A DNA stretch of 16,548 nucleotides from Escherichia phage vB_KppS-Ant: sequence record LR881103, one strand, 5' to 3'. Below the pieces are notes generated by a model. It was not told where the DNA came from and made no database searches. It was given only the letters and a program-made list of their open reading frames with translations. Shown piece after piece: positions 1 to 16,548 of the stretch. The stretch's first letter is position 1, and each line of letters opens with the position of its first letter. The position numbers were made by a program, and so were the translations under genes.

Positions 1-22
1 ACGAAAAGGAAAACAGTAAGTT

Positions 23-379
23 ATGGCAAGACCACCCAAACCGCCCGCTTACCTTGATGAAATCGCGGCGCAGCAGTGGAAAGCAAAGGCGAAGCAACTG
101 GCGGAACGCGGTGATCTGACGCCTGCCGACTGGAACAACCTTGAGCTTTATTGCGTCAACTACTCGATGTACCGCAAAGCCGTGAAGGACCTTGCCGCGC
201 GGGGATTCAGCATTGTGAACAGCCAGGGTGGTGAGAGTCGCAACCCGGCCCTGAGCGCAAAGGCTGATGCCGAAAAAATTCTCATAAAAATGTCGTCTCT
301 GCTGGGCTTTGATCCGGTAAGCCGTCGCCGCAACCCGCCTGAAACTGAAGAGGAAGACGAACTTGACCGCATGGAATGA
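23..379 (+). CDS. terS: Phage terminase small subunit (P27-like family)
   Basis: 118 aa; N-terminal PPKPPAYLD...W, central LTPAD...LE.YC and C-terminal NPAL...GFDPVSRRR pattern typical of P27-type small terminases; sits directly upstream of and overlapping the large terminase. Confidence 0.75.
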   Translation: MARPPKPPAYLDEIAAQQWKAKAKQLAERGDLTPADWNNLELYCVNYSMYRKAVKDLAARGFSIVNSQGGESRNPALSAKADAEKILIKMSSLLGFDPVSRRRNPPETEEEDELDRME

Positions 380-2024
380 TTACGCCATCGCCATAAAATC
401 GGGCGAAATTCCGGCCTGTAAGCGGGTAAAACAGGCCGTCGAAAGGTACTTTTCAGACCTGAATGACCCCCGTTACGTGTTCGATACAGCGACCGTAGAG
501 CGGTTTATTGCGTTCTCCCGGCTTTGTCCTCACGTCAAAGGGCCGTTGCGCGGTCAGCCTATCATGCTGGAGCCGTGGCAGCAGTTCGCCTTTGCTAACC
601 TGCTGGGCTTTAAGGTCAGTGCTACGGGGCGCAGGAAGTACAGCAGCGCCTTTATCGAGGTGCCGCGTAAGAATGCCAAATCCACCGTAGCTGCAATGCT
701 GGCTAACTGGTTTCTGGTGATGGAGCAGGGCCAGCAAGACATTTACACGGCGGCGGTGAGCCGGGATCAGGCTCGTATCGTGTTCGACGATGCCCGTCAG
801 ATGTGCCTGCTGTCAAAACCGCTGAAAAAGCGCGTGAATATTCAGGCTCATAAAATGATTTTCCCGAAGAATAACAGCCTGTTAAAGCCGCTGGCGGCGA
901 AAGCGGCCACCATCGAGGGGACGAATCCCAGCCTGGCTATTGTCGATGAGTACCACCTTCACCCGGATAACGGCGTTTACTCCGCACTTGAGCTGGGTAT
1001 GGGGGCACGTCCTGAAGCGGTTTTATTCGCCATCACCACCGCCGGGAGTAACGTTGTTTCTGCCTGCAAGCAGCATTACGACTACTGCTGTCAGATTCTG
1101 GCCGGGGAAGAGAGCAACGATTCGCTGTTTGTTCTGATTTACGAACTGGACGACGAAAGCGAGGTTGATCAGCCTGAAATGTGGATCAAGGCTAACCCGA
1201 ATCTGGATATCTCCGTTGATGCGGCAAAACTGGAGGCCACTATCCAGAAAGCACGGGGCATCCCGTCGCAATGGGTGGAGATGCTGACCAAACGTTTCAA
1301 TATCTGGTGTCAGGGTTCCACACCGTGGATGGGCGCGGGGGCCTGGGACGCCTGCAAACTCGACTATGAAGAAAGCGAGCTGGCCGGAATGGAATGTTAT
1401 GCAGGTCTGGACTTGTCCTCAACCAGCGATATCACCAGTGTAAATTACGCTTTTCCGTTCGACAGGGAGATTAGGTTACTGACAAGGCACTATCTGCCGG
1501 AAGCGACACTTAATAATGTTTCCAATAAAAACCGCGCCATTTACCGCCAGTGGGTGAAAGCAGGCTGGATTCGTACCACTCCCGGCGACTGCATCGATTA
1601 TGACCGCATCCGCGACGATATTCTGCGCGATGCCGAAACATTCAATATCCGTCTGGTGGGCTTCGATACGTGGAACGCCACGCATCTGCGTACCCAACTA
1701 CAGGGGGCGGGCCTTGAGGTAGAGCCGTTCCAGCAAACCTATCTTAAATTCAGCCCGGTAGCGAAATCGTTTGAAGTGTTCGTTAACCGCAAGGTGGTGC
1801 GCCATCGCGGCGATCCGGTACTGGCCTGGGCGATTGGTAACGTGGTGATGGAGTCCGACGCCAACGCCAATATCAAGCCCAACAAGAAGAAATCCTCCAA
1901 CAAGATTGATCCGGCAGTGGCTGCGTTAATGGCGTTCGGCACATTCCAGGCTGAGCATGAGGATTTTGCATTTGATATGAGCGAAAGCCACAAAGATCGC
2001 CTCAGTCATTTTGACGGGGTGTAA
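363..2024 (+). CDS. terL: Phage terminase large subunit (ATPase/nuclease)
   Basis: 553 aa; Walker A-like VPRKNAKST and Walker B-like LAIVDEYH; C-terminal nuclease-like region; TTG start overlapping the terS 3' end with AGGA 8 nt upstream. Confidence 0.85.
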   Translation: MTAWNDYAIAIKSGEIPACKRVKQAVERYFSDLNDPRYVFDTATVERFIAFSRLCPHVKGPLRGQPIMLEPWQQFAFANLLGFKVSATGRRKYSSAFIEVPRKNAKSTVAAMLANWFLVMEQGQQDIYTAAVSRDQARIVFDDARQMCLLSKPLKKRVNIQAHKMIFPKNNSLLKPLAAKAATIEGTNPSLAIVDEYHLHPDNGVYSALELGMGARPEAVLFAITTAGSNVVSACKQHYDYCCQILAGEESNDSLFVLIYELDDESEVDQPEMWIKANPNLDISVDAAKLEATIQKARGIPSQWVEMLTKRFNIWCQGSTPWMGAGAWDACKLDYEESELAGMECYAGLDLSSTSDITSVNYAFPFDREIRLLTRHYLPEATLNNVSNKNRAIYRQWVKAGWIRTTPGDCIDYDRIRDDILRDAETFNIRLVGFDTWNATHLRTQLQGAGLEVEPFQQTYLKFSPVAKSFEVFVNRKVVRHRGDPVLAWAIGNVVMESDANANIKPNKKKSSNKIDPAVAALMAFGTFQAEHEDFAFDMSESHKDRLSHFDGV

Positions 2025-2035
2025 GGAGAAAGATT

Positions 2036-4333
2036 ATGGCAGGTAAATCATTAGGCACTCTCACCATTGACCTGATCGCCAGAACCGGCGGTTTTGTCCA
2101 GGGTATGGATAAAGCCGAACGTTCATCACAAAAATGGCGGGATAACGTTAAAAAAGATGCCGCAGCCGTGGGTTCAGCCCTTGCTGCTGTTGGCACAGCC
2201 GCAGCAGCGGCGGCTATCGGTGTTAGTGCCGCTGGTATTGCACTGGTAAAAAATACCTCAGAGCAGATCACTGAAACTGATCGCTGGGCTAAATCGCTAA
2301 AAATGTCTACTCAGGATTTGCTTTCATGGCAGTTTGCTGCTGAGAAAGCAGGGTTGACCGGGGATAATATTGCTGACATCTTCAAGGATATTAACGATAA
2401 AGTCGGCGATGCTGTCCTGAACAAGTCAGGTGAGGCTGCTCAGGCTCTGGATACTCTCGGGCTTTCAGCTGAGAAACTGGCCCAGCAATCCCCTGATAAG
2501 CAGTTACTGGCTATCAGCTCGGCATTGCAAAAAATCCCCTCTCAGGCCGGGAAAACTAATATCCTCGAAAGCCTGGGGAATGACCTGTCAAAAATGCTGC
2601 CGTTGTTCGACAACAATAACGAGAAGCTGAAGCAGTTTATCCAGCTGTCAAAAGATTTTGGTGTCGCTCCGCCCCAGGAGGATATTGATAACCTGGTTAA
2701 GGTTAATCAGTTTTTCCAGGATATTGAGAGCAGTGCACAGGGGTTAAAGATCGAGATTGCCAGTGGCCTGGCTAAAGTAGACCTCTCACCGATTCAGGAT
2801 GGACTTGATGATATCCGGGATGTGTTTACCGATCCTGCTGTTCTGTCAGGTCTGGCAAAGCTGGTCGGAGGGATGGCGGAACTTGTTGGCTGGATGGGTA
2901 AGCTAAGTTCTGAATCTGCTAATTTTCTCAGCCATATATTTGAAGTGCCTGACAGGTTTAAGGCGGGTGGCTGGTACGAGTTTGAAAAAAATCAGAGATT
3001 AGGAGCAATAGCAGATACGCTTCAATCAGATTTAGGGGGAATAACTAAACCATCTTCAAACTCTGAGTTGCCAATAAATAATAACCTGCTCCCCGGGCAG
3101 AGCAATCAGAAACAAACTCAAAAGCCTGATGCTGAGGCAAAAAAACTTGAAAGTGCCTATAAAGCCGTAGAACAGTCATATTTAAAGCAAATTGCGCTGG
3201 TGGATCAGCTAACCGGGAAAACCAAAGACGCCACTGAAGTAGAAAAACTACATTTCGATTTAGTATCTGGTCGTCTGGTTGGGATAAATAAAGAACAGCA
3301 AATCAGGCTTGAGGGCTTGGCCTCAGAAGTTGATAAATATAACGCGTTGTCAAAATTTCGAGATTTGCAGGATGAGTTATTAACTCCAGAAGAAAAATTA
3401 CTTAAAACGACGAGAGAACGTTTTGAAATATTAAAAGATATTCAGGGAATGAAGGGGATCAGCCCTGATGAATATAAAAAAGCAGCAGAAGCCATATCGA
3501 AAGATTCATTTACAGATATGCCTAAATTTAGTGGTCTTGATCCGATGTTTGGCGGTCAATCTGGAGAGTTAAGAAAAGTTGATGACGCACAGAAAGAACA
3601 GGAAAAATGGTATCAGAATCAGCTCGATTTGCTGGAACAGAACCGTCAGGCACGTTCTGACCTTAATGATGAGTGGGATGCCAGAGAGCTTGAACTGAAG
3701 AAAAAACACCAGGATGAAATGAATAAGCTCGATGAAGCCCGTAATCAGCTGATGTTGAGCAGTGTTGTCGATGGGCTTGGTTCTATGGTGGATTTGACCC
3801 GTACAGCTTTTGGTGAGCAATCAGGAGTATACAAAGCCGCGTTTGCAGTTCAGAAAGCCGCGGCTATTGCTCAGTCTGTTATCGCTATCCAGCAGGGGAT
3901 CGCGATGGCGGCTGCAAACCCTTTCCCGTACAACCTTGCAGCGATGGCCAGCGTAGCCGCTTCTACAGCCGGTATTGTGTCGAACATTGCGGCCGTGGGT
4001 ATGGCTCACGATGGTATTGATGCTGTTCCAGAAACCGGAACATGGCTTCTCCAGAAGGGCGAACGCGTAGTCACGGCGAATACCAGCGCGAAACTGGATG
4101 CGACCCTTAACCGTGTCGCCCAGCAATCCACTTCTGGTAATCAGATTTCCCAGGAATTTAATTTTAACGTTAATGGCGATCCTTCTGATGCTCAGATAGC
4201 CATGATGAAGAAAGCGGCCGCTGACGGTGCCAAGATGGGGTATCAAAAGGCGGTCAATTCAGTAATTACTGGTCAGGGTGATTTGCACAAGGCTCTGATG
4301 ACGAAAACTAATTCAGGCAGAAAAATAGGGTGA
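2036..4333 (+). CDS. Tail tape-measure-like protein (lambda gpH family architecture)
   Basis: 765 aa; N-terminal GTLTIDLIARTGGFVQGM segment followed by an Ala-rich hydrophobic stretch; long central charged Lys/Glu/Gln-rich helical region; C-terminal hydrophobic Ala/Gly-rich block then GIDAVPETGTWLLQKGERVVTANTS, which resembles the conserved C-terminal motif of lambda-family tape-measure proteins; strong RBS (AAGGAG) upstream. Confidence 0.65.
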   Translation: MAGKSLGTLTIDLIARTGGFVQGMDKAERSSQKWRDNVKKDAAAVGSALAAVGTAAAAAAIGVSAAGIALVKNTSEQITETDRWAKSLKMSTQDLLSWQFAAEKAGLTGDNIADIFKDINDKVGDAVLNKSGEAAQALDTLGLSAEKLAQQSPDKQLLAISSALQKIPSQAGKTNILESLGNDLSKMLPLFDNNNEKLKQFIQLSKDFGVAPPQEDIDNLVKVNQFFQDIESSAQGLKIEIASGLAKVDLSPIQDGLDDIRDVFTDPAVLSGLAKLVGGMAELVGWMGKLSSESANFLSHIFEVPDRFKAGGWYEFEKNQRLGAIADTLQSDLGGITKPSSNSELPINNNLLPGQSNQKQTQKPDAEAKKLESAYKAVEQSYLKQIALVDQLTGKTKDATEVEKLHFDLVSGRLVGINKEQQIRLEGLASEVDKYNALSKFRDLQDELLTPEEKLLKTTRERFEILKDIQGMKGISPDEYKKAAEAISKDSFTDMPKFSGLDPMFGGQSGELRKVDDAQKEQEKWYQNQLDLLEQNRQARSDLNDEWDARELELKKKHQDEMNKLDEARNQLMLSSVVDGLGSMVDLTRTAFGEQSGVYKAAFAVQKAAAIAQSVIAIQQGIAMAAANPFPYNLAAMASVAASTAGIVSNIAAVGMAHDGIDAVPETGTWLLQKGERVVTANTSAKLDATLNRVAQQSTSGNQISQEFNFNVNGDPSDAQIAMMKKAAADGAKMGYQKAVNSVITGQGDLHKALMTKTNSGRKIG

Positions 4334-4548
4334 TGAAGATGACAGAACTTGAAAGTTTATTTTACGAGATGATGCCGGGTCATATTGCCCACGCGATGAA
4401 AATTGAAGGGGCAAAAATTCTGGCAGAAAGTACGCAGAAAGAGGCCGAACGTCAGTCAACGTTAACCGGCCTGTCTTCTGAGCTTATCATTCAAACTGCG
4501 ATTCAGGCGATCTCTATGCAGATGAAAAACTGGCAAGTAGTCCACTGA
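4330..4548 (+). CDS. Hypothetical small protein (72 aa), start overlaps the tape-measure stop
   Basis: ORF with GTG/ATG starts overlapping the upstream TGA; no recognisable motif. Confidence 0.4.
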   Translation: MMKMTELESLFYEMMPGHIAHAMKIEGAKILAESTQKEAERQSTLTGLSSELIIQTAIQAISMQMKNWQVVH

Positions 4549-4597
4549 CAAGGTTATGGCCCTCAATCGGGGGCCACACTACCAACTGAGGTGCTGC

Positions 4598-4786
4598 ATG
4601 TTAAAAAGAGAAGCTTTAGAGTCTGCCATTATCAGTGCAGCAAAATTGCAGGGGCATGATCTTAACGGGCGAGATCGTCTTATGGTGCGTAATCGCGTTG
4701 CCACTTGCTTGGCTGCGAAAGAACGCCACCGGCAAAGGATGGATGCCGAACCGTATCAATGGAGAAAGCCGGAAAGGCCAAGGTGA
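4598..4786 (+). CDS. Hypothetical small basic protein (about 62 aa; internal ATG of ORF 4556..4786)
   Basis: GAGG 6 nt upstream of ATG at 4598 (the ATG at 4556 has only a 2-nt spacer after AAGG); followed by an intrinsic terminator. Confidence 0.3.
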   Translation: MLKREALESAIISAAKLQGHDLNGRDRLMVRNRVATCLAAKERHRQRMDAEPYQWRKPERPR

Positions 4787-4803
4787 TGAACCCAACCAAT
4801 CAA

Positions 4804-4837
4804 AGCACTGGACTATGTTCTGGTGCTTTTTTATTTG
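4804..4837 (+). terminator. Rho-independent terminator (hairpin then T-tract)
   Basis: agcactgg...ctggtgc stem followed by tttttta ttt immediately after the 4786 stop. Confidence 0.5.
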
Positions 4838-4849
4838 TGCGAGCCAACG

Positions 4850-4871
4850 TGTATAAACATATGTATAAACA
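4850..4871. repeat. Tandem pair of TGTATAAACA decamers (left copy of a 22-bp composite repeat)
   Basis: tgtataaaca-ta-tgtataaaca at 4850..4871, repeated 21/22 at 5083..5104. Confidence 0.7.
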
Positions 4872-4875
4872 CTAA

Positions 4876-4915
4876 TAAAAAAGGCGCTTCCCCATGCCGA
4901 AGAGCGCCTTTTTAA
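4876..4915. terminator. Bidirectional intrinsic terminator-like hairpin flanked by A-run and T-run
   Basis: aaaaaAGGCGCT...AGCGCCTTttt: 8-bp stem (4881..4888 with 4903..4910) with A-tract upstream and T-tract downstream. Confidence 0.5.
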
Positions 4916-5082
4916 ACAAGCATTTAACTGATTGGTATCAGTTCATGCCGTACTGTCATATTAGCTGTTTTCATGCTTTTAGATGATTTTAATATTCATA
5001 TAATAATCAATGTGTTGTATAAATTCATGCCTGTATATTGTTCCAGTGTTTTTCTTTGTTTATGCTATTATGCAAGCAATTC

Positions 5083-5104
5083 TGTATAAACATTTGTATA
5101 AACA
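5083..5104. repeat. Tandem pair of TGTATAAACA decamers (right copy), just upstream of the integrase start
   Basis: tgtataaaca-tt-tgtataaaca at 5083..5104; candidate integrase arm-type sites. Confidence 0.7.
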
Positions 5105-5122
5105 CTTTGGGCTGGGTGGTCT

Positions 5123-6343
5123 ATGGCTGGCGAACTTAACAAACTGAGCGACAGGAAGTTAAAGGGATTACATGGTATCCCGGCCAGTAAGATTGAGTTC
5201 TATGCTGATGGTGCCGGGCTGAGCGCCAAGGTAACTAAAGCTGGTGGTATTAGCTGGGTGTTTACTTACCGACTCGACGGGCAGAAGCTGCATCGTCTTA
5301 CTCTGGGACGATACCCGGATATGAGCCTCAAAGAGGCCCGTTCTTCGCGTGATAAATGCCGCCAATGGCTGGCCTCAGGTAAAGATCCAAAGCACCAGTT
5401 GGCGCTGACCACTCAGGAAACGCTTAAACCGGTCACTGTTAAGGAAGCTATAGAATACTGGATACGCGAATATGCAGAAGAGAACCGCGCGAATGTTGAA
5501 CGGCACAAAGCGGAGCTGCGAAAACACATTTATCCTTATATAGGGAAAATGGCGCTCGCTGACTGTGAAACACGATACTGGCTTGACTGCTTTGACAGGA
5601 TGAAAAAGAAAACTCCAGTCGCCGCAGGTTATGTGTTCCAGATGTGCAAACAAGCCCTGAAATTCTGCCGGGTTCGTCGCTATGCTGTGAGTACCGCGCT
5701 TGAAGATTTAACAATTCCAGATGTCGGTAAAAAACAGGCAAAAAAAGACCGGGTATTAAACGATAAAGAGGCTGGCGATTTATGGGCTGCCATTTCCTCT
5801 GGCACTTGCTTCATGCCTTACTACACCAGGCTACTGACAATCTTAATGGTGTTTGGGTGCCGAACGCAGGAGGCCAGGCTATCAGAGTGGAGTGAATGGG
5901 ATATGGATGCCTGGGTCTGGACAGTTCCCAAAGAGCACAGCAAGGGCGGCGAGAAGATTGTAAGACCTGTGCCGGATGCCATGCGCAAATTCATTGAAAT
6001 ACTGCATGATGAAACGAAACGATCCGGCCTTTTGCTTGGGTCGGTTAAAGGCAGTGAAGCGGTAAGTCAGTGGGGCCGCGGTGTTTATAAAAAGCTGGGG
6101 CATTCTGAACCATGGACACTGCACGATCTAAGACGAACTTTAGCAACGCATATGAATAATATGGGTATAGCACCACACGTTGTCGAACAGTTGTTGGGGC
6201 ACTCAATGCCGGGAGTTATGGCGATTTATAACCGTAGTCTGTACTTGCCTGAGAAACTGGATGCGTTGAATAAATGGTATGACAGACTTGATATTTTATC
6301 AGGTGGATTCACTAACATTGTTTTGTTGAATAGGGCTGAATAA
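5123..6343 (+). CDS. int: Tyrosine site-specific integrase, P4-type (N-terminal arm-binding domain plus C-terminal catalytic domain)
   Basis: 406 aa; N-terminal L.D.K...GL.....G..W.F.YR..G.....LG.YP..SL.EAR...D pattern of P4-like integrases; C-terminal HDLRRT ... LLGH ... Y catalytic signature. Confidence 0.9.
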   Translation: MAGELNKLSDRKLKGLHGIPASKIEFYADGAGLSAKVTKAGGISWVFTYRLDGQKLHRLTLGRYPDMSLKEARSSRDKCRQWLASGKDPKHQLALTTQETLKPVTVKEAIEYWIREYAEENRANVERHKAELRKHIYPYIGKMALADCETRYWLDCFDRMKKKTPVAAGYVFQMCKQALKFCRVRRYAVSTALEDLTIPDVGKKQAKKDRVLNDKEAGDLWAAISSGTCFMPYYTRLLTILMVFGCRTQEARLSEWSEWDMDAWVWTVPKEHSKGGEKIVRPVPDAMRKFIEILHDETKRSGLLLGSVKGSEAVSQWGRGVYKKLGHSEPWTLHDLRRTLATHMNNMGIAPHVVEQLLGHSMPGVMAIYNRSLYLPEKLDALNKWYDRLDILSGGFTNIVLLNRAE

Positions 6344-6993
6344 TGACTAGTTTTCTAAAATTGGGTATTTTCGAGCGAGAAGCCAAAGCCCCGGAACTCA
6401 ATATTAAACAACTTGCACTACTTATGTGTGGGGTAGATCCGACAGTTAAAACTGCTGATATCCCTGAGGCGAAAGTTGAAGCTTACAATATATACTATCG
6501 ACAACTGAGTAGATGGTTATCAGCATCTAAATTATTTCGAGGTGGAAACTCAACAGCCTATCCCGCAGACTATATGTTTGCTCTGGCATATCCTCTTATT
6601 GATGAAGATATTACACCACAACCCATAAAGGACAGATGCCTTGCAGCGGTGGCTATAATTGCTAATCAAAACAAAGGAAAAGAGCATCTTTATGCTATGG
6701 GAGGGGATGAGCTTTTACAGGTCGGAATTGCATTGAAAAGCAGCAAACGCGGCTTGCATCGTAAAGAAGATGAAAAGGAATATAATGATAAATTAATGGG
6801 GATGCTGGTCAAGCTTATAGCACATAAGATAGGCCATTCGTTTGGCACCTCTAAAAAACCAAGCATCTCGGCTATTTTAAACGAACTATATAAATTAGCT
6901 GATGAGGAAGGTATATCTAAAACTGGATTATCCAAATCAGCAATATATGATAAAATTCGCAAGGCATTAAATTCGATTTATTATACGGAATGA
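6343..6993 (+). CDS. Hypothetical protein (216 aa), AT-rich cargo gene translationally coupled to int
   Basis: Start overlaps the int stop (TAATG); codon composition visibly more AT-rich than the neighbouring core genes; no recognisable catalytic motif. Confidence 0.55.
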   Translation: MTSFLKLGIFEREAKAPELNIKQLALLMCGVDPTVKTADIPEAKVEAYNIYYRQLSRWLSASKLFRGGNSTAYPADYMFALAYPLIDEDITPQPIKDRCLAAVAIIANQNKGKEHLYAMGGDELLQVGIALKSSKRGLHRKEDEKEYNDKLMGMLVKLIAHKIGHSFGTSKKPSISAILNELYKLADEEGISKTGLSKSAIYDKIRKALNSIYYTE

Positions 6994-7129: not shown

Positions 7130-7229
7130 CATTCAACAGCATTCAACAGCATTCAACAGCATTCAACGACACGTAACGACACGTAATGACACGTAACGGC
7201 ACCCGACAGCACCTAACAATACCTAGCTC
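7130..7229. repeat. Array of ten contiguous 10-bp units (CATTCAACAG x3, then progressively diverged copies)
   Basis: cattcaacag at 7130, 7140, 7150; cattcaacga, cacgtaacga, cacgtaatga, cacgtaacgg, cacccgacag, cacctaacaa, tacctagctc follow with strict 10-bp period. Confidence 0.8.
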
Positions 7230-9739: not shown

Positions 9740-9954
9740 GACAGGTTCCTTTTGAAGTCCTGATGCACGCTGAAAATGCCCTTTCTGAAAGCGAAGGAGC
9801 CTATGAGGTTCTCAGCATGTGGCTAGACAGTATTCCTGAAAGCGAGGAGTTCCACGGTGAAGCGTGCAAGGTAAGCGCAATCATGTCGCTGCTGCATAAA
9901 TCTATCGGCGAGCTGGTGAAAGCGCGGGAGGCTTACAGTGAAAAACGCGCCTAA
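9736..9954 (+). CDS. Hypothetical small acidic protein (72 aa)
   Basis: ATGA overlap with the upstream ORF; Glu-rich; overlaps the helicase start. Confidence 0.45.
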   Translation: MRQVPFEVLMHAENALSESEGAYEVLSMWLDSIPESEEFHGEACKVSAIMSLLHKSIGELVKAREAYSEKRA

Positions 9955-11689
9955 TGTGAAAACCCTCCCGCGCGACAAAATGGAGGAGGCCATCATCTTT
10001 GCTGGAACGGGAGCATGGAAAGCCGCTCAGGATTACCAGAAAGGGAAGGGCGAGCATGGAGACGATGTTCCGCCTGTGGTTCTGGATCACACCCAACTGG
10101 CGGAATTACCACACCTGCGCATTGTTGATAAAGGCCGTCGATTTGCCCGTGTCTGTCAGGCCGGGCTTATCGAGCAAAACCAAATCAGCATGATTGCAAA
10201 TAAGTTGTGTGAGGCTGGCGTTACCAATGCTGAGTTTATCAACGAACAAGGCGAGAAAGAGGACTGGACGCCATTGATGAAACGTCTGGAAGACGAGCCC
10301 CTTATGGTGACTACGAGGGGAAGTGCTACGCCAGCGCTTAACCAGATGGGAGCCAGCCAGCGCGGGGAAGTTCTGCTTGCTCATTACAATGGCAATCTGG
10401 CGATCCATGCTGATTCCGACACGGTTCATCATTACAACGGCGTGGTGTGGGTTCCGCTTTCGGATAAAGAGCTGCAGCGAGAAATGGCGCAGATTTTTAT
10501 TGATTCCGAAGTCGCCTATTCGCAGAACGCGATTAAATCCGCTGTCGATACAATGAAGCTGGGCCTCCCGGTAATGGGTAACACAGCCCGTAACCTGATT
10601 GGTTTCAGCAACGGGGTTTTTGATACCCGGTTAGGCCAATTTCGACCGCATGATAAAAAGGACTGGCTTATCGTTGCGAGCGAATTGCCATTCAGCGAAC
10701 CAGCAGAAGGTGAAACTCTGGCAACCCATGCGCCTAACTTCTGGAAATGGCTCCGCCGCTCTGTGGCGGATAATGACCGAAAAGCAGACCGCGTACTGTC
10801 TGCGCTGTTTATGGTGCTGGCGAACCGGTACGACTGGCAGCTGTTTCTTGAGGTAACGGGGCCGGGCGGAAGTGGTAAAAGTGTCATGGCTGAGATCTGC
10901 ACGATGCTGGCGGGCAAGGCCAATACGGTATCGGCGAGCATGGCGGCGCTGGAGAACCCAAGGGAAAGGGCGCTGGTAGTTGGCTATTCGCTGATTATCA
11001 TGCCGGATATGACCCGGTACGCTGGCGACGGCGCAGGGATTAAAGCTATCACTGGCGGGGATAAGGTGGCTATCGACCCAAAACACAAAGCGCCATATTC
11101 AACCCGTATCCCGGCGGTGGTGCTGGCCGTCAATAACAATGCTATGACGTTCAGTGACCGCAGCGGCGGTATTTCAAGGCGACGGGTGATTTTCAACTTC
11201 ACCGAAGTAGTGCCGGAAAACGAACGCGATCCGATGCTGGCCGAGAAGATTGAAGGAGAGCTTGCGGTAATCATCCGGCATCTGCTTGTGCGCTTTTCCA
11301 GCCAGAACGAAGCCAAACAGCTTTTGCATGAGCAGCAGAAATCAGAAGAAGCGCTGGCCATCAAACGTGAAGGGGATTCACTGGTGGACTTTTGCGGATA
11401 CCTGATGGCTTCGGTGGTTTGTGATGGAATGCTGATTGGTAATGCCGAGATCGTGCCATTCAGCCCGCGCCGTTATCTGTATCACGCTTATCTGGCTTAC
11501 ATGCGGGCCAATGGTCTTAGCAAGCCTGTATCGTTAATGCGGTTCGGTACGGATATGCCAGGCGCAATGGCTGAATATGGCAAGGAGTACCAGAAGCGCA
11601 AAACTAAAAATGGCATAAGATCGAACGTCACCCTGCATGATGATTCAGAAGACTGGATGCCAATGTGTACCGATACAACAAAAGAATAA
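9938..11689 (+). CDS. Replication protein: P4-alpha / D5-family SF3 helicase (phage/plasmid primase C-terminal type), probable origin-binding initiator
   Basis: 583 aa; Walker A GPGGSGKS about 300 aa in; D5_N-like region upstream (HYNGVVWVP); GTG start with GGGAGG RBS; iteron cluster immediately downstream. Confidence 0.8.
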   Translation: MKNAPNVKTLPRDKMEEAIIFAGTGAWKAAQDYQKGKGEHGDDVPPVVLDHTQLAELPHLRIVDKGRRFARVCQAGLIEQNQISMIANKLCEAGVTNAEFINEQGEKEDWTPLMKRLEDEPLMVTTRGSATPALNQMGASQRGEVLLAHYNGNLAIHADSDTVHHYNGVVWVPLSDKELQREMAQIFIDSEVAYSQNAIKSAVDTMKLGLPVMGNTARNLIGFSNGVFDTRLGQFRPHDKKDWLIVASELPFSEPAEGETLATHAPNFWKWLRRSVADNDRKADRVLSALFMVLANRYDWQLFLEVTGPGGSGKSVMAEICTMLAGKANTVSASMAALENPRERALVVGYSLIIMPDMTRYAGDGAGIKAITGGDKVAIDPKHKAPYSTRIPAVVLAVNNNAMTFSDRSGGISRRRVIFNFTEVVPENERDPMLAEKIEGELAVIIRHLLVRFSSQNEAKQLLHEQQKSEEALAIKREGDSLVDFCGYLMASVVCDGMLIGNAEIVPFSPRRYLYHAYLAYMRANGLSKPVSLMRFGTDMPGAMAEYGKEYQKRKTKNGIRSNVTLHDDSEDWMPMCTDTTKE

Positions 11690-11719
11690 AGGCGGGGAAA
11701 ATTAAAAGTAATGGGATAA

Positions 11720-11950
11720 GTGTTCACCACTGTTCACCATGTATAAAAATCATTAAATAACAATATGTTAATGGGTGAACACTTTTTTATGAAGTGTTCA
11801 CCAAGTATTCACCTGTTCACCCTGTTTTATCTTTTCCTCAGTTTGAGGTGAAGGGTTGGGTGAACACTAGTGAACACCTGAAAGAATAGTATTCACCCTG
11901 TAACTATATGAATTTAATTAATAAATTATCAAAGGTGAACAGGTGAACAC
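11720..11950. promoter_or_regulatory. Origin-like iteron cluster: at least 10 copies of TGTTCACC / GGTGAACA (and the TATTCACC variant) in both orientations in AT-rich DNA
   Basis: Copies at about 11721, 11731, 11774 (inv), 11794, 11805 (variant), 11814, 11859 (inv), 11869 (inv), 11889 (variant), 11934 (inv), 11942 (inv). Confidence 0.65.
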
Positions 11951-12095
11951 TTAAACGTATATTTTTTAATTTTATTGAGCAACGCAGGATCACTTCCAGC
12001 CTGGAATACCTGGGATCAATCATGGAACACGCACCGTGGAATATTAAAAGCTAATATTTTTGTAAATTATTTGTATTCATGTTTACTCATTCTTA

Positions 12096-12289: not shown

Positions 12290-13450
12290 ATGAAGAAACT
12301 ACTCGAATTACGCCAGCAGAAAGCCGCACTCAAAACACAGATGCGTTCCATGCTGGACAAAGCCGACACCGAAAAGCGCAGCCTGAACGAAGAAGAGGGC
12401 AAAAAGTTCGACGAACTCCGCGCACAGGCTGATGCGCTTGAAGTTGAAATCAACCGCCTTGAAGCCGTCGCCGAAGATCAGCGCAATCTGCCTGGTACTT
12501 CCGTTGAAGGTGATCCAGTAAGCAACGACGAGCTGCGCCACTACATCATGACCGGTGATACCCGTTCTCTCTCCACGCTGGTGCAGGCTGACGGCGGTTA
12601 TACCGTTATCCCTGAGCTGGACAAAGAGATTATGCGCCAGTTGCAGGATGATAGCGTGATGCGCTCCATCGCAACGGTGAAGACCACCAAAACCAACGAA
12701 TACCAGAAGCTGGTATCTGTGGGCGGCACTACCGTTAATCGTGGTACCGAAGGTGAGGCACGTACCGAAACCAGTACGCCGAAGATGGAGCGCGTTGATA
12801 TCAAACTCAACCCGATCTACGCCTACCCGAAAACCACTCAGGAGATTCTCGACTTCTCCGAGGTGGATATTTTGGGCTGGCTGTCTTCTGAAATTGCCGA
12901 CACCTTCACCGCGACCGAAGAAAGCGACTTTGTGAACGGCGACGGTGATAAAAAATCCAAAGGCTTCCTGTCTTACCCTCGCGCGGCCACTGCCGACAAA
13001 ACCCGTCCGTTCGGTACGCTGGAGAAGATGGAAGCGGCTGACGTTTCCTCTGATGGCCTGATCGACCTGCTGTATAAGCTGAAAGCCAAATACCGCAAAA
13101 ACGCCGTATGGGTGATGAACTCCAACACCGCAGCCAAACTGCAAAAGCTGAAAAACGGCAACGGGGATTACATCTGGCGCGATCGTCTGGTTGCCGGTTC
13201 TCCCGATACCCTGCTGGGCCGTCCGGTTCAGTACCTTGAAACCATGCCTGATGCTGATGCCGGAGAAGCGTTCCTCGCGGTTGGCGACTTCAAGCGCGGT
13301 TACTTCATCGTGGATCACACTACTGGTGTGCGTACCCGCCCTGACAACATCACCGAGCCGGGCTTCTATAAGGTTCACACCGATAAATATCTGGGCGGCG
13401 GCGTGGTGGACTCCAACGCGATCAAGATTCTGGAGCTTGCTGGTTCCTGA
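12290..13450 (+). CDS. Major capsid protein, HK97 fold/family
   Basis: 386 aa; N-terminal coiled-coil delta-domain-like region (KKLLELRQQKAALKTQ...), then ADGGYTVIPELDKEI and the overall HK97-family pattern. Confidence 0.85.
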   Translation: MKKLLELRQQKAALKTQMRSMLDKADTEKRSLNEEEGKKFDELRAQADALEVEINRLEAVAEDQRNLPGTSVEGDPVSNDELRHYIMTGDTRSLSTLVQADGGYTVIPELDKEIMRQLQDDSVMRSIATVKTTKTNEYQKLVSVGGTTVNRGTEGEARTETSTPKMERVDIKLNPIYAYPKTTQEILDFSEVDILGWLSSEIADTFTATEESDFVNGDGDKKSKGFLSYPRAATADKTRPFGTLEKMEAADVSSDGLIDLLYKLKAKYRKNAVWVMNSNTAAKLQKLKNGNGDYIWRDRLVAGSPDTLLGRPVQYLETMPDADAGEAFLAVGDFKRGYFIVDHTTGVRTRPDNITEPGFYKVHTDKYLGGGVVDSNAIKILELAGS

Positions 13451-13460
13451 TTCGACGTGT

Positions 13461-13477
13461 GAGGGGCTTCGGCCCCT
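13461..13477 (+). other. Stable hairpin with UUCG tetraloop between capsid and protease genes (possible attenuator or mRNA stabiliser)
   Basis: AGGGGC-ttcg-GCCCCT; only a short U-run follows. Confidence 0.35.
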
Positions 13478-13501
13478 TTCTGCCCTCTGTGGAGTCCAAT
13501 A

Positions 13502-14062
13502 ATGAAAACAATAGATTTTGAAATCCGCACCTCTGAACTGACCGCTACTGATAAGAAGCTGGTGGGCTATGCCGTGCGCTGGAACAGTCTGTCAGAAATC
13601 ATCTGGGATGAATTCAGGGAACAGTTCGCGCCGGGAGCGTTTAAAGACAGCCTGGCATCCGGTAGCGATGTGCGGGCGTTGTATGAGCATAACTATACCC
13701 AACTGCTGGGACGTACCAAATCTGGCACGCTGGTGCTGTCAGAAGATGATACCGGGCTGCGCTTTGAGCTGACGCCGCCGAATACTCAGCTTGGTAATGA
13801 TGTGCTGGCGCTGGTGGAACGTGGCGATCTTTCAGGTATGAGCTTTGGTTTCCGTGCGCTGAAAGAGTCCTGGGATATTGCGCAATCCCCGTACCTGCGA
13901 ACAGTGACCGCTGCCGAACTACGGGAAATCACCGTTACTTCCATGCCTGCTTACCCTGAATCCGGCGTGGAAATCGCGCACCGTTCGCTTTTCTCCCAAC
14001 ATCCTGAACTGCGCCGCGCTGGCGATAACCGTCGCCGCTGGGCTGAATTAGCGGGGCTCTGA
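13502..14062 (+). CDS. Prohead maturation protease, HK97 family
   Basis: 186 aa; GYAVRWN..., YEHNYTQLLGRT (His), LSEDDTGLRF, GMSFGF (Ser) pattern. Confidence 0.8.
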   Translation: MKTIDFEIRTSELTATDKKLVGYAVRWNSLSEIIWDEFREQFAPGAFKDSLASGSDVRALYEHNYTQLLGRTKSGTLVLSEDDTGLRFELTPPNTQLGNDVLALVERGDLSGMSFGFRALKESWDIAQSPYLRTVTAAELREITVTSMPAYPESGVEIAHRSLFSQHPELRRAGDNRRRWAELAGL

Positions 14063-14063
14063 T

Positions 14064-15299
14064 ATGTGGAATATCTGGCCGTTTGGCCGTAAGTCTGAAC
14101 CCTCTGAGCAGCGCAGCATGACCATTGATGAATTTCTGGCGATGGCAGGGATTCCAAATACCGGATCAGGCGAGTATGTGTCTGCGGGTACTGCGGAATC
14201 TCTGCCGGCGGTAATGAACGCCGTATCAGTTATCAGTGAGGCGGTGGCAACAATGCCCTGCTACCTCTACCGCGTGCGCAACGATAACGGGCGTGAGGCG
14301 CGGGAATGGCTGAGCAATCACCCGGTGGATTTTCTGCTGAATGAGCAGCCGAATATTTGCCAGACGCCTTACCAGTTCAAGCGCACGATGATGCGCCACT
14401 GTCTGCTGAACGGTAACGCCTATGCGGTGATCCAGTGGGGCCGCGACGGCCAGCCACAATCCCTGCATCCGTATGCGCCGGGGGCGGTTGTTCCTGAGCG
14501 TATCGGCGAGCATAAGTACAAATACACCATCACTGAGCCGTTTACCGGGGCTGTACGTACCTATTTGCAGGAAGAGATTCTGCACCTGCGTTATTCCACC
14601 GATGACGGTTTTCTGGGGCGCTCGCCGATCACCATTTGCCGGGAGGCGCTGGGGTTAGGTCTGGCCCAACAGCGCCACGGTGCCAGCATTATGAAAGATG
14701 GCATGATGGCGGCGGGCGTCATTACGGCTAAAGAATGGCTGGATAGCGTTAAAGGGAAAAGTGCACTTGAGGCGCTGGAGCGCTACAAAGGTGCAAGGAA
14801 TGCCGGGAAAACGCCGATCCTTGAAGGGGGGATGGACTACAAACAGCTTGGCATGAGCAATCAGGATGCCGAGTGGCTGGCCTCCCGCCGTTTCACCATT
14901 GAAGATATTGCCCGCATGTTCAACGTGTCGCCCATCTTCCTGCAGGAATACAGCAACAGCACCTACAGCAACTTCAGCGAGGCAAGCCGCGCTTTTCTCA
15001 CCATGACTATGCGCCCGTGGCTGGCGAACTTCGAGCAGCAGATTAAATCCGCGCTGCTGGTGGCTTCTCCTGTGCCGGGTATTCGTTATCAGGTGGAATT
15101 TGATTCCGCTGACCTTCTCCGCGCTACTCCTACCGAACGCTACGCAACCTATGAGCGCGGCATCAAGAACGGGATCATGAATCCTAACGAGGCTCGCGAG
15201 CGTGAGGGCATGGCACCGCGTGAAGGCGGTGACGAGTTCAGCCAGGCATGGAAGCAGGAAGTCACTGTGAGCAAGGGCAATAAGGATGGTGACGAATGA
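14064..15299 (+). CDS. Portal protein, HK97 family
   Basis: 411 aa; AVMNAVSVISEAVATMP and ARMFNVSPIFL segments typical of HK97-type portals. Confidence 0.8.
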   Translation: MWNIWPFGRKSEPSEQRSMTIDEFLAMAGIPNTGSGEYVSAGTAESLPAVMNAVSVISEAVATMPCYLYRVRNDNGREAREWLSNHPVDFLLNEQPNICQTPYQFKRTMMRHCLLNGNAYAVIQWGRDGQPQSLHPYAPGAVVPERIGEHKYKYTITEPFTGAVRTYLQEEILHLRYSTDDGFLGRSPITICREALGLGLAQQRHGASIMKDGMMAAGVITAKEWLDSVKGKSALEALERYKGARNAGKTPILEGGMDYKQLGMSNQDAEWLASRRFTIEDIARMFNVSPIFLQEYSNSTYSNFSEASRAFLTMTMRPWLANFEQQIKSALLVASPVPGIRYQVEFDSADLLRATPTERYATYERGIKNGIMNPNEAREREGMAPREGGDEFSQAWKQEVTVSKGNKDGDE

Positions 15300-15637
15300 A
15301 AGCCGGAAAGATGAAACGCCGCGTCACTATTCAGCAGTTCGTCAGTCACCAGGACCCGAACACGGGGTCAGTCACTAAAGAATGGCGCGATGTTGCCACC
15401 GTTTGGGGGGAGATAGACAGCGTAAGCGGGCGGGAGCTTGTAGCCGCCCAGGCTGAACAGTCAGAGATGACAGTCAGAATCTGGATTCGCTATCGCAAAG
15501 GCGTTACCACCAAAAACAGACTGACCTGCACAGAAAAAGGAATGCCTGTAACCATCTACGACATCAAAGCTGTTCTGCCTGATGCAGATCGTACCCGCCT
15601 TGAAATTATGTGCACCGGAGGGCTGACCAGTGGCTGA
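15296..15637 (+). CDS. Head-tail adaptor / head closure protein (SPP1 gp16-like head-tail joining family)
   Basis: 113 aa; RRVTIQ...D..G....W..V..VWGEI....GRE........MTVRIWIRYR pattern; ATGA overlap with the portal stop. Confidence 0.65.
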   Translation: MKAGKMKRRVTIQQFVSHQDPNTGSVTKEWRDVATVWGEIDSVSGRELVAAQAEQSEMTVRIWIRYRKGVTTKNRLTCTEKGMPVTIYDIKAVLPDADRTRLEIMCTGGLTSG

Positions 15638-15923
15638 AACTATTGAACTTGCTGAAGCAAAACTTCACTGCCGTATTGATGGCGATGATGAAGATTTGCT
15701 CATTCAGGCTTACATCGATGCGGCTCTGGAGGTTTGCCAGAAACATATCGGCAAGCGGTTTGATAGTGGGCTGGAGCTTACCCCGGCTATCAAAATCGGT
15801 TGCCTGATGTACGTCTCTCAGTTGTACGAGTACCGCACGATGATTAGCGATGTGGAGGCGAAAGAGGTTCCTCTTGCTGTCTCAGCGCTGTGGTCTGTCT
15901 ATCGTGACGTGGGGGTGTACTGA
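15630..15923 (+). CDS. gp6-like head-tail connector protein
   Basis: 97 aa; LAEAKLHCRIDGDDEDLLIQAYIDAA...; GTG start overlapping the upstream gene. Confidence 0.65.
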   Translation: MAETIELAEAKLHCRIDGDDEDLLIQAYIDAALEVCQKHIGKRFDSGLELTPAIKIGCLMYVSQLYEYRTMISDVEAKEVPLAVSALWSVYRDVGVY

Positions 15924-16366
15924 TGCCGTGGCAACCCTTACGCCGTTGCACTGAGCCGGGATGCAACAAGCGCGTGAAGTCTGGTAAATGCGATGAGCAT
16001 AAACGGGAGGTGTGGCGGGCACAGGATGCCAGACGCGGCCACCGTCGCGCCCGTGGTTACTCAGCAGCATGGGAGAAGTATCGCGCCCAGTATCTAAAAC
16101 GCTATCCCCTGTGCGCTGAGTGCCAGAAGCAGGGCCTCTTCGTTCCTGCAAAGATTGTCGATCACATCATCCCTATCGACGGCGGTGATGATGTTCTGTT
16201 CTGGCCTGAGTGGAATCACCAGCCGTTATGCCAGACGCATCATAACCAGAAGACCACACAGCAAGACCCTATCACCAAAGCCAATCGCAAAGCGGGGATG
16301 TACCACGAGCAGGAAGAGCGGGCAGCACAGCGCAATAACTGGATGTATGAGGTTGATCATGAATGA
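15923..16366 (+). CDS. HNH endonuclease (terminase-associated type)
   Basis: 147 aa; Cys pairs CTEPGC and CAECQ plus DHIIPIDGGDD...NHQPLCQTHHNQK HNH signature. Confidence 0.85.
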   Translation: MPWQPLRRCTEPGCNKRVKSGKCDEHKREVWRAQDARRGHRRARGYSAAWEKYRAQYLKRYPLCAECQKQGLFVPAKIVDHIIPIDGGDDVLFWPEWNHQPLCQTHHNQKTTQQDPITKANRKAGMYHEQEERAAQRNNWMYEVDHE

Positions 16367-16511
16367 GAAAGACGTGGTGAATCTGTATCAGTCGCTGGCC
16401 CGATGCCGTGATGGCTTCATGCAGACCCGCACCAGACGCGATGAGCGCCAGCCTGTGCAGCGCATGAGTGAGCGTGACCGGGAGTTGCGGGAATGCTTCC
16501 GCAACCGCTGA
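16359..16511 (+). CDS. Hypothetical small Arg-rich protein (about 50 aa), internal start of ORF 16155..16511
   Basis: ATG at 16359 overlaps the HNH stop; GAGG 6 nt upstream. Confidence 0.35.
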   Translation: MNEKDVVNLYQSLARCRDGFMQTRTRRDERQPVQRMSERDRELRECFRNR

Positions 16512-16548
16512 CAGGCCGCACCGATGGGGTGGGGGAGGTTTTCAGGAC

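Follow-up and report, generated by a model that had tools for sequence, protein, structure and literature searches.

A phage-type tape-measure gene carried as late-operon cargo by the capsid-forming island KpCIDSM30104

Introduction

The closest described counterparts of the locus reported here are the PLEs of Vibrio cholerae, satellites that likewise depend on the tails of a helper and encode a tape-measure protein (TMP) of their own (Mathur, Boyd et al., Nature 2026, PMC12987554). The PLE TMPs are built into PLE virions in place of that of the helper, giving tails ~10 nm shorter; when they are deleted, transduction falls by 96-99.9% (PMC12987554). They are ~20% identical to the TMP of ICP1, are accompanied by a chaperone and a hub gene, and belong to contractile tails. 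The same report depicts putative tmp genes, recognized by BLASTp/HHpred, in capsid-forming PICIs (cf-PICIs; Extended Data Fig. 10b, PMC12987554). The presence of TMP genes in this satellite class is thus already in the literature, and the view in the initial annotation that a satellite-encoded ruler would be unexpected is out of date. Gene maps of a sample are given, without analysis of origin, selection, recombination or a link to KpCIDSM30104, and the supplementary files contain no list of the cf-PICIs that carry tmp. EPIP satellites of Mycolicibacterium also encode a TMP and no other tail proteins (bioRxiv 10.64898/2025.12.02.691453), but they represent an unrelated host and element type, and the tails of EPIP particles are longer and of variable length.

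cf-PICIs have been described as taking nothing but tails from phages, and the absence of phage tail and lysis genes was a criterion of the search of Alqurainy et al. (bioRxiv 10.1101/2022.09.08.507074). KpCIDSM30104 is the model island for spread between species by way of tail-less capsids; its capsids are completed by HK022 tails (bioRxiv 10.1101/2025.02.11.637232), and the text of that report (He et al.) does not mention a tape-measure gene in the island. The TMP of the present locus differs from those of the PLEs in that it is 86-90% identical and equal in length to real phage alleles, stands without chaperone or hub gene, and belongs to non-contractile tails; a further difference is that the island builds capsids of its own and is able to use tails completed in other cells.

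Classification and features of the element

The window (the whole stretch of 16,548 nucleotides analysed) is 100% identical, over the 8 kb that are comparable, to the chromosome of K. pneumoniae ATCC 13883 (= DSM 30104; L010) and on this identity represents the capsid-forming island KpCIDSM30104 in excised form, the same island that was studied by He et al. (bioRxiv 10.1101/2025.02.11.637232). Its main features outside the tape-measure locus are as follows.

23..379, + strand: terS, P27-family small terminase (Pfam Terminase_4, E=3e-25), the first gene past the probable cos region
363..2024, + strand: terL, large terminase (Pfam TerL_ATPase, TerL_nuclease)
4869..4952, no strand: attP core, including the 3' end of fis and matching both ends of the integrated island
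5123..6343, + strand: tyrosine integrase (Pfam Arm-DNA-bind_3, Phage_integrase)
9938..11689, + strand: D5-type primase/helicase of the replication module (Pfam D5_N, DUF5906, Pox_D5)
12290..16366, + strand: head module (Pfam), consisting of capsid (12290-13450), protease (13502-14062), portal (14064-15299), head closure (15296-15637), connector (15630-15923) and HNH (15923-16366)

In the chromosomal copy, the ends of the window lie on either side of 69 nt of GC-rich DNA, the probable cos region. Positions 4869-4952 align to positions 6001-6084 and 22258-22341 of the integrated locus L001, and identity to the chromosome L010 stops at position 4952. The chromosomal identity and the attP junction together show that the element is complete, and therefore that tail genes of the same element do not lie just outside the window. 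The idea of a prophage remnant beside the island was rejected as well, the TMP gene being inside the att-bounded element in both the chromosomal and the excised form.

When every sizeable ORF in the window was scanned with Pfam and PHROG, AlpA was also detected and, besides the TMP, no tail gene. A tblastn search with the tube, chaperone, terminator, M, L, K, I and J proteins of KpF5 and HK022 gave no match to the window; among the HK022 queries, matches came only from its two head-closure proteins, both on the head-closure gene of the island, the product of which is 47% identical to HK022 gp9. No lysis genes were found in the window, and no chaperone or hub homologue in the window or the island loci. 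The initial annotation was thus correct both in naming a capsid-forming satellite as the carrier and in seeing no other tail genes. Integrase, AlpA, primase, HK97-type capsid, protease, portal, head closure, connector and HNH-terS-terL, on ~15-17 kb bounded by att sites, place the element among the cf-PICIs. With the TMP, KpCIDSM30104 has one tail gene where the search of Alqurainy et al. allowed none; the gene departs from the criterion of that first search without contradicting the biology shown for KpCIDSM30104.

The tape-measure protein

The ORF at positions 2036-4333 (+ strand, ATG start) encodes 765 aa, of which residues 1-764 match positions 1-854 of the 855 in phrog_2854 ('tail length tape measure protein') with E=2e-176; about 15 further TMP PHROGs also matched in the profile search. 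The tape-measure likeness first noted from the letters of the sequence is therefore real from end to end. Relatives with 86-87% amino acid identity lie in complete Klebsiella siphophage modules with the gene order tube-G-T-TMP-M-L-K-J (L015-L017, L019, L022), and the island protein is within one residue of them in length, the closest phage alleles having 765-767 aa. The TMPs of Klebsiella phages KpF5 and KPP5665-2 and Escherichia phage vB_EcoS-733R5 are 55-63% identical to it (tblastn), and HK022 gp16 is 50% identical over aa 1-440. Judged by these matches, the island protein is a true tape-measure homologue of the HK022/KpF5-type family. The TMPs of the temperate siphophages KpF5 and vB_EcoS-733R5, of the IMG/VR prophages L015-L022 (86-87% identity) and of HK022 (gp16) are homologous to it over the full length and share its hydrophobic segments and conserved ends.

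Membership in the lambda (gpH) family, as first proposed, was rejected. The Pfam models TMP_2 and Tape_meas_lam_C did not match the island TMP even at E<=10, whereas in the same test lambda gpH matched both and the KpF5 TMP matched Tape_meas_lam_C; BLASTP against lambda gpH gave nothing significant (best E=0.25). A search of PDB sequences found no solved relative, and neither the TMP nor the two genes that follow it (orf72, orf76) were matched in NCBIfam, Pfam or PADLOC. The three regions of the protein were delimited as follows.

2036..2890, + strand: N-terminal region, aa 1-285, conserved with phage TMPs (identity and hydropathy)
2891..4000, + strand: central rod, aa 286-655, mosaic and variable (alignment, Pfam, nucleotide identity, hydropathy)
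4001..4333, + strand: C-terminal domain, aa 656-765, an island-specific variant that contains PETGTWLLQKGERV

Regarding the N-terminal 285 aa, the identity to most sampled KpF5-type phage TMPs was 84-93%, with a minority of alleles at 57-71%. The central rod is without the Tape_meas_lam_C domain that is present in the KpF5 TMP. Charged residues make up 30-35% of aa 286-600, and hydropathy revealed Ala/Gly-rich hydrophobic segments at aa 42-73 and 608-657; the island sequence thus has the long charged helical rod and hydrophobic Ala/Gly segments by which a TMP is recognized. Regarding the C-terminal 110 aa, the identity to most sampled KpF5-type TMPs was 70-81%, and 81% was the maximum for any sampled phage, whereas the domain is 99-100% identical among islands (89% in L027); the island variant occurred in no sampled phage TMP. 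Used as the sole protein query, the C-terminal 164 aa returned short fragments only, a result that does not decide on presence in phages. The block PETGTWLLQKGERV (aa 665-678), which had been likened to a conserved motif of gpH, is a genuine block, invariant among KpF5-type TMPs; the likeness to lambda gpH did not hold in the BLASTP and Pfam comparisons. The island-specific domain could indicate altered rather than conserved tip binding.

Placement in the late operon

The gene lies directly after terL, as initially annotated, its start codon being separated from the terL stop by 11 nt. The remaining features of this region are as follows.

2025..4335, + strand: phage-derived cassette of ribosome-binding site and TMP ORF (blastn boundaries, phrog_2854, module identity)
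4333..4548, + strand: orf72, small helical protein, the ATG of which overlaps the TMP stop (TGATG)
4556..4786, + strand: orf76 (phrog_7271, function unknown; PHROG matches), the final gene before attR
4802..4829, + strand: terminator-like hairpin with T-run

By blastn, DNA similarity to phage tail modules extends from just after the terL stop to 2 nt past the TMP stop. These matches give the cassette exact boundaries, and it shows translational coupling with orf72. In these islands orf72 is always directly 3' of the TMP gene and is 94-97% conserved in island loci; its homologues were found in Klebsiella only, and it had no Pfam, PHROG, NCBIfam or PADLOC match. A homologue of orf76 also closes the E. 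coli sister island. In each of the Klebsiella chromosomal loci examined (L003-L007, L010), as in the window, the TMP gene has its place between terL and attP/attR, with pairwise coordinates for L004, L005 and L010, and the order terL-TMP-orf72-orf76 was seen throughout. In the phage orthologues (L015-L022) the TMP gene lies between the G/T chaperones and the distal M-L-K-J tip genes, whereas the island copy lies between terL and orf72. Sister islands have DUF3892 or a gpI homologue in the slot after terL.

The hairpin at 4802-4829 probably ends a terS-terL-TMP-orf72-orf76 transcript, since the scan of positions 1500-5200 found no other terminator-like site on the + strand. The scan found no terminator between terL and the TMP gene and no promoter-like site there, the promoter scan overall giving no more than chance. 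This bears on the idea that the protein acts outside the tail, as a hydrophobic, membrane-active TMP inside the producing cell or the recipient, for instance by permeabilising membranes, by aiding lysis or abortive infection, or by superinfection exclusion at the inner-membrane entry route of related phages. The two Ala/Gly-rich hydrophobic segments, the toxicity of TMP expression reported in the Methods of 10.1101/2025.01.29.635557 and the intactness of the gene in a native strain that has no siphophage partner are in its favor. Expression without induction, which exclusion would need, is however unsupported, the conservation of both tail-interaction ends is left unexplained, and no precedent was found in the literature searched; we consider such a role improbable.

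Selection and exchange

Between the TMPs of the island and of island L027, dN/dS was 0.069 at dS 0.55, with 0.04-0.12 across all four TMP regions compared; between the island and phage L016 it was 0.058. These ratios indicate strong purifying selection over the whole length of the TMP (dN/dS 0.05-0.13), acting while the gene resides in islands. Nearly all of the best 120 clusters, which represent hundreds of Klebsiella contigs, have 765-767 aa, and the intact ORF occurs in at least eight Klebsiella/Raoultella species, the hosts including K. pneumoniae, K. quasipneumoniae, K. variicola, K. michiganensis, K. aerogenes, K. oxytoca and K. grimontii.

The central part of the gene, and that part only, is 99.8-100% identical at the nucleotide level to a prophage (L091) in another K. 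pneumoniae genome, which is evidence of recent exchange, and in island L018 the segment of aa 481-655 differs. Judged by these alignments, the island gene still swaps segments with the TMP genes of prophages. A special short ruler formed by a middle region unique to islands was rejected, phages among L015-L022 sharing the 765/766-aa allele.

The gene could also be a neutral passenger, helper DNA that was gained by recombination and has not yet been lost. The cargo of the slot does vary among sister islands, the GC content of the TMP gene is below that of terL, and some genomes have a 262-aa fragment identical to the TMP C-terminal region (P0133), possibly truncated or mis-called. Such a passenger is nevertheless very improbable in view of the low dN/dS between island copies diverged to dS 0.55, the intact ORF across contigs and species, the exact cassette with its translational coupling to orf72, and the cost of 2.3 kb in a 16.6-kb genome that must fit a small capsid. 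KpCIDSM30104 carries, as 3' cargo of its late (packaging) operon, a tape-measure gene of phage type that is intact and under selection.

Proposed function

Setting tail length, interfering with helper tails and serving as a repurposed fold, the three roles put forward in the initial annotation, cannot be separated from sequence alone. Selection over the whole length, phage-equal length and continuing recombination nevertheless favor an assembly-competent TMP and disfavor the repurposed fold. The most likely role, to which we assign a probability of roughly 45%, is that the island TMP replaces the helper TMP in tails made from KpF5/HK022-type phage parts. The island would be induced while a temperate siphophage of this type builds tails in the same cell; the island TMP would use the chaperones, tube and tip proteins of the phage, displacing the phage's own TMP, and the resulting chimeric tails would then complete island capsids. 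An altered tail length (7-12 nm shorter, for 46-79 residues at 0.15 nm each) would be expected only with helpers whose allele has 811 or 844 aa, because the island TMP equals the closest phage alleles in length. The benefit might, speculatively, be a tail supply insensitive to factors aimed at the helper TMP, or a DNA-entry device (central rod and island-specific C-terminal domain) carried from donor to donor.

Chimeric tails are consistent with the retention of both interaction ends of the TMP around a mosaic middle. The TMP type also matches the tail type used by KpCIDSM30104: KpF5-like phages share the head-proximal tail module of HK022 (terminator 74%, tube 71% and chaperone 65% identity). 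The PLE TMPs provide the precedent. Several observations point the other way. The native strain offers no siphophage tail parts, since its inducing helper is a podovirus and its second prophage P2-like, and the island exits the cell as tail-less capsids. HK022 tails produced in separate E. coli cells without the island TMP support very efficient transfer (bioRxiv 10.1101/2025.02.11.637232), so that particles can be completed and DNA delivered in this way without the TMP. The chaperone and hub genes that accompany the TMP in PLEs are absent from the island, the C-terminal domain of its TMP differs from that of every phage TMP sampled, and He et al. refer to the slot after terL only as variable and 'expected to encode immune systems' (bioRxiv 10.1101/2025.02.11.637232).

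The last two observations suit a different function, dominant-negative interference or defence, in which the island TMP would bind the chaperones or the tip complex of resident or invading KpF5-type siphophages so that tails are dead or absent; phage output would fall, and the island would leave as tail-less capsids and gain tails elsewhere. The island-specific C-terminal domain could be the poisoned tip-binding end, and the variable slot would be the place for such an immune function. PICIs and PLEs do encode tail-assembly blockers, of which Tai targets J and Rta targets the TMP. Local sabotage of tails is affordable, since cf-PICIs can use the tails of other cells, and the island lowers helper titre >100-fold, though that helper is the podovirus. 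A decoy, however, needs an interaction domain only, whereas all four regions, rod included, are strongly selected; the length is the same as in phage alleles, and exchange with functional prophage alleles takes place in the middle region. Expression would also come only after induction, because the gene lies in the late operon. PADLOC-DB v2, a library that predates Tai and Rta, yielded no defence-model match for the TMP, orf72, orf76 or the other unassigned island ORFs. Identity of the cargo with Tai (He et al. 2024) was rejected, Tai being a different gene that adjoins pri. We regard interference as rather unlikely.

In a wider reading, the post-terL slot of this cf-PICI lineage would be a swap-in position for single tail-assembly genes from local donor phages, by which the island re-programs tails that it does not otherwise encode, with the C-terminal domain and orf72 as specificity determinants; the KpF5-type TMP in Klebsiella and the HK022-type gpI in E. 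coli would both be examples. Possible effects are tails that favor island capsids or escape TMP/J inhibitors (Rta, Tai, exclusion proteins), and a DNA-entry device kept constant across different donors. This reading is unlikely.

Implications

Strains, mutants and tail-mixing assays for KpCIDSM30104 exist already, so that the question is directly answerable. Should the protein turn out to be a tail poison, it would represent a new type of assembly-interference defence derived from a full-length structural paralogue. Were the TMP incorporated into the tails of donors, KpCIDSM30104 would shape tail assembly and not be a mere receiver, and the manipulation of tails, shown so far only for the PLEs of Vibrio, would extend to enterobacterial satellites with clinically relevant cargo.

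Organization of the element

The genes in the window are those of a capsid-forming island (cf-PICI), a PICI-type phage satellite, in permuted order:

23-379, + strand, terS
363-2024, + strand, terL
2036-4333, + strand, tape-measure protein (TMP) of 765 aa, followed by two small ORFs (orf72, 4333-4548; orf76, 4556-4786)
5123-6343, + strand, tyrosine integrase, followed by an AlpA regulator and a D5-type primase
3' of the primase, + strand, HK97-type capsid, prohead protease, portal, head-closure protein and connector, in this order
last of the main + strand ORFs, + strand, HNH endonuclease

Related E. coli islands are located between yhdJ and fis, with the order int ... HNH-terS-terL. Positions 4869-4952 contain the 3' end of fis and align with both ends of a related fis-site island, and therefore represent the attP core. 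Direct repeats TGTATAAACAT(A/T)TGTATAAACACT at 4850-4873 and 5083-5106 flank this core; the integrase probably binds them as arm-type sites.

When representative genomes were scanned, a 100% identical TMP was found in K. pneumoniae ATCC 13883, and positions 13493-16548 plus 1-4952 of the window were 100% identical to the chromosome of this strain. The sole bases absent at the window ends (1-22 and 16512-16548) are 69 GC-rich nucleotides between the HNH region and terS (gaacacgagggcgccaggcaccacccgccccctc...; 3057-3125 of the ATCC 13883 locus, L010), which are probably the cos site; their absence suggests that the window was derived from packaged or circularized DNA with the cos region unassembled. 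Because ATCC 13883 and DSM 30104 are one strain, the window is KpCIDSM30104, the subject of He et al. (bioRxiv 10.1101/2025.02.11.637232), in excised or packaged form. The element is thus complete, without tail genes immediately outside it. The TMP gene described in the initial annotation is real and correctly placed (2036-4333).

Further features were observed in the window. The 216-aa ORF directly 3' of int (6343-6993) matches phrog_30524 (E=1e-120), a family without an assigned function; immune cargo has also been reported at the 5' end of PICIs. Upstream of alpA, the AT-rich gap contains three tandem copies of CATTCAACAG (7130-7169), a possible binding site for a regulator, and the interval between the primase gene and the capsid operon (11698-11972) contains clustered direct and inverted repeats with GGTGAACA, a possible operator or origin. 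The last 16 kb (90645-106503) of the 106.5 kb record of Klebsiella phage P12620-1 (PQ569648.1) align with 45% of the island (88% identity); this record may include a co-assembled or co-packaged cf-PICI.

Identity and structure of the tape-measure protein

The 765-aa protein matches phrog_2854 ('tail length tape measure protein') over its full length (E=2e-176), along with many other TMP PHROGs, and NCBI records already label the gene accordingly. Using tblastn, the TMPs of Klebsiella phage KpF5 (811 aa) and Escherichia phage vB_EcoS-733R5 (844 aa) were found, as was HK022 gp16 (806 aa; 50% identity over aa 1-440). Five IMG/VR prophage-like loci (L015, L016, L017, L019 and L022) encode a 766-aa TMP with 86-87% full-length identity to the island protein, in the canonical gene order tube, G, T, TMP, M, L, K, J. 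The end-to-end profile match and the phage homologues thus uphold the assignment as a TMP. The proposed membership in the lambda gpH family did not hold: BLASTP against gpH gave no significant match, and Pfam models TMP_2 and Tape_meas_lam_C were unmatched even at E<=10, whereas gpH matched both and the KpF5 TMP matched Tape_meas_lam_C. The C-terminal PETGTWLLQKGERV block is indeed conserved, but its family is that of the KpF5-type TMPs, not lambda gpH. The island TMP is the orthologue of the TMP of KpF5-like phages.

Residues 1-285 show 84-93% identity to most sampled KpF5-type phage TMPs (57-71% for a minority of alleles), and residues 286-655 form a mosaic rod, with unrelated sequence in most phages. 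Between islands, residues 656-765 share 99-100% identity (89% in one island), versus 70-81% with most sampled phage TMPs (maximum 81%). Two hydrophobic segments rich in Ala and Gly are present (aa 42-73 and 608-657). A role outside the tail, with the protein active at membranes, is considered improbable.

Phage-similar DNA spans exactly 2025-4335, i.e., the ribosome-binding site and the ORF from just past the terL stop codon. At 2000-4500 the GC content drops, with about 54% in terL and 43-48% in the TMP gene, which is consistent with a different origin of the cassette. The ATG of orf72, an ORF found only in Klebsiella and a constant companion of the TMP gene, overlaps the TMP stop codon. The sole terminator-like site on the + strand within the scanned interval 1500-5200 is located 3' of orf76 (4802-4829), so that the TMP gene seems to belong to the late packaging transcript.

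Distribution, selection and recombination

Hundreds of contigs encode the TMP at 765-767 aa; these contigs represent at least eight Klebsiella/Raoultella species, among them K. pneumoniae, K. quasipneumoniae, K. variicola, K. michiganensis, K. aerogenes, K. oxytoca and K. grimontii. In all chromosomal loci examined, the gene is located 3' of terL in a cf-PICI beside fis, with three different replication modules. Cluster P0133 (262 aa, 19 member sequences), a fragment with a sequence identical to the TMP C-terminal region, may represent truncated or frameshifted TMP gene copies, or assembly or gene-calling artefacts.

The dN/dS ratio was 0.069 between two island copies at a dS of 0.55 (0.04-0.12 in each of four regions) and 0.058 between island and phage. 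Selection keeps the whole TMP, not a single domain, during island residence; that the gene is a neutral passenger is contradicted by these data and very improbable.

In a defective KpF5-like prophage of K. pneumoniae GCA_014218685.1 (L091, 8001-10304), the middle third of the TMP gene shares 99.8-100% DNA identity with the window, versus 84% and 59% for the flanks. The island gene also recombines with phage copies, and this mosaic indicates recent island-prophage gene conversion. An IS605-family element lies directly upstream of this prophage TMP gene, no head genes were found in the 8 kb shown upstream, and the assembly may additionally contain the island copy, since cluster P0002 includes a contig of the same length. 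In another island (L018, 2146-4449; IMG/VR 3300036783_000215), a 768-aa TMP combines unrelated residues 481-655 (37% identity) with an island-type C-terminal domain (99% identity).

Tail donors and possible function

In DSM30104 the inducing helper is a podovirus and the second prophage is P2-like; KpCIDSM30104 exits the cell as tail-less capsids, which are completed very efficiently by HK022 tails from separate E. coli cells, but not by HK106 tails (He et al., bioRxiv 10.1101/2025.02.11.637232). The text of that study makes no reference to an island tape measure gene. KpF5-like phages have the head-proximal tail module of HK022 in common (identities: head closure 89%, gp10 80%, terminator 74%, tube 71%, chaperone 65%), whereas the HK022 tip genes are not shared by KpF5-like Klebsiella phages. 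Given the shared module, KpF5-like phages probably act as the natural source of tails in Klebsiella.

The best-supported reading (probability about 0.45) is that the island encodes an assembly-competent TMP, which would substitute for the helper TMP during tail assembly by a KpF5-type phage in the same cell. Chimeric tails would result, as in the PLE satellites of Vibrio, where virions contain the satellite TMP, tails are shortened by about 10 nm and transduction falls by 96-99.9% upon deletion (PMC12987554). A necessary role in tails is opposed by the dispensability of the gene when exogenous HK022 tails complete the capsids, by the lack of a siphophage in the native strain and by the lack of a chaperone or hub gene in the island. 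A dominant-negative tail poison, which agrees with the 'immune' reputation of the post-terL slot and with the satellite tail-assembly blockers Tai and Rta, is rather unlikely.

The E. coli GN02050 island, a sister cf-PICI integrated at the same fis site, encodes a full-length tail assembly protein of the lambda gpI family in the post-terL slot (L002, 17898-18497; phrog_32, E=2e-74; 64% identity to HK022 gpI and 70% to HK225 gpI), a second lone tail gene in the cf-PICI lineage. It is followed by a small phrog_7271 ORF, as in the window, was limited to 3 of the 5426 complete E. coli genomes, and found no mention in the literature searched.

Relation to published work

Putative tmp genes in cf-PICIs have been shown (Extended Data Fig. 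10b of PMC12987554) and a TMP was reported in a mycobacterial satellite (EPIP; bioRxiv 10.64898/2025.12.02.691453); the core observation is therefore already published. New here are the assignment of the window to the model island KpCIDSM30104, the precise structure of the cassette, the data indicating selection and recombination, the C-terminal domain specific to islands, the fit with the family of probable tail donors and the gpI homologue in the equivalent slot of the sister island. As an experimental system for the island already exists, the question is readily testable.
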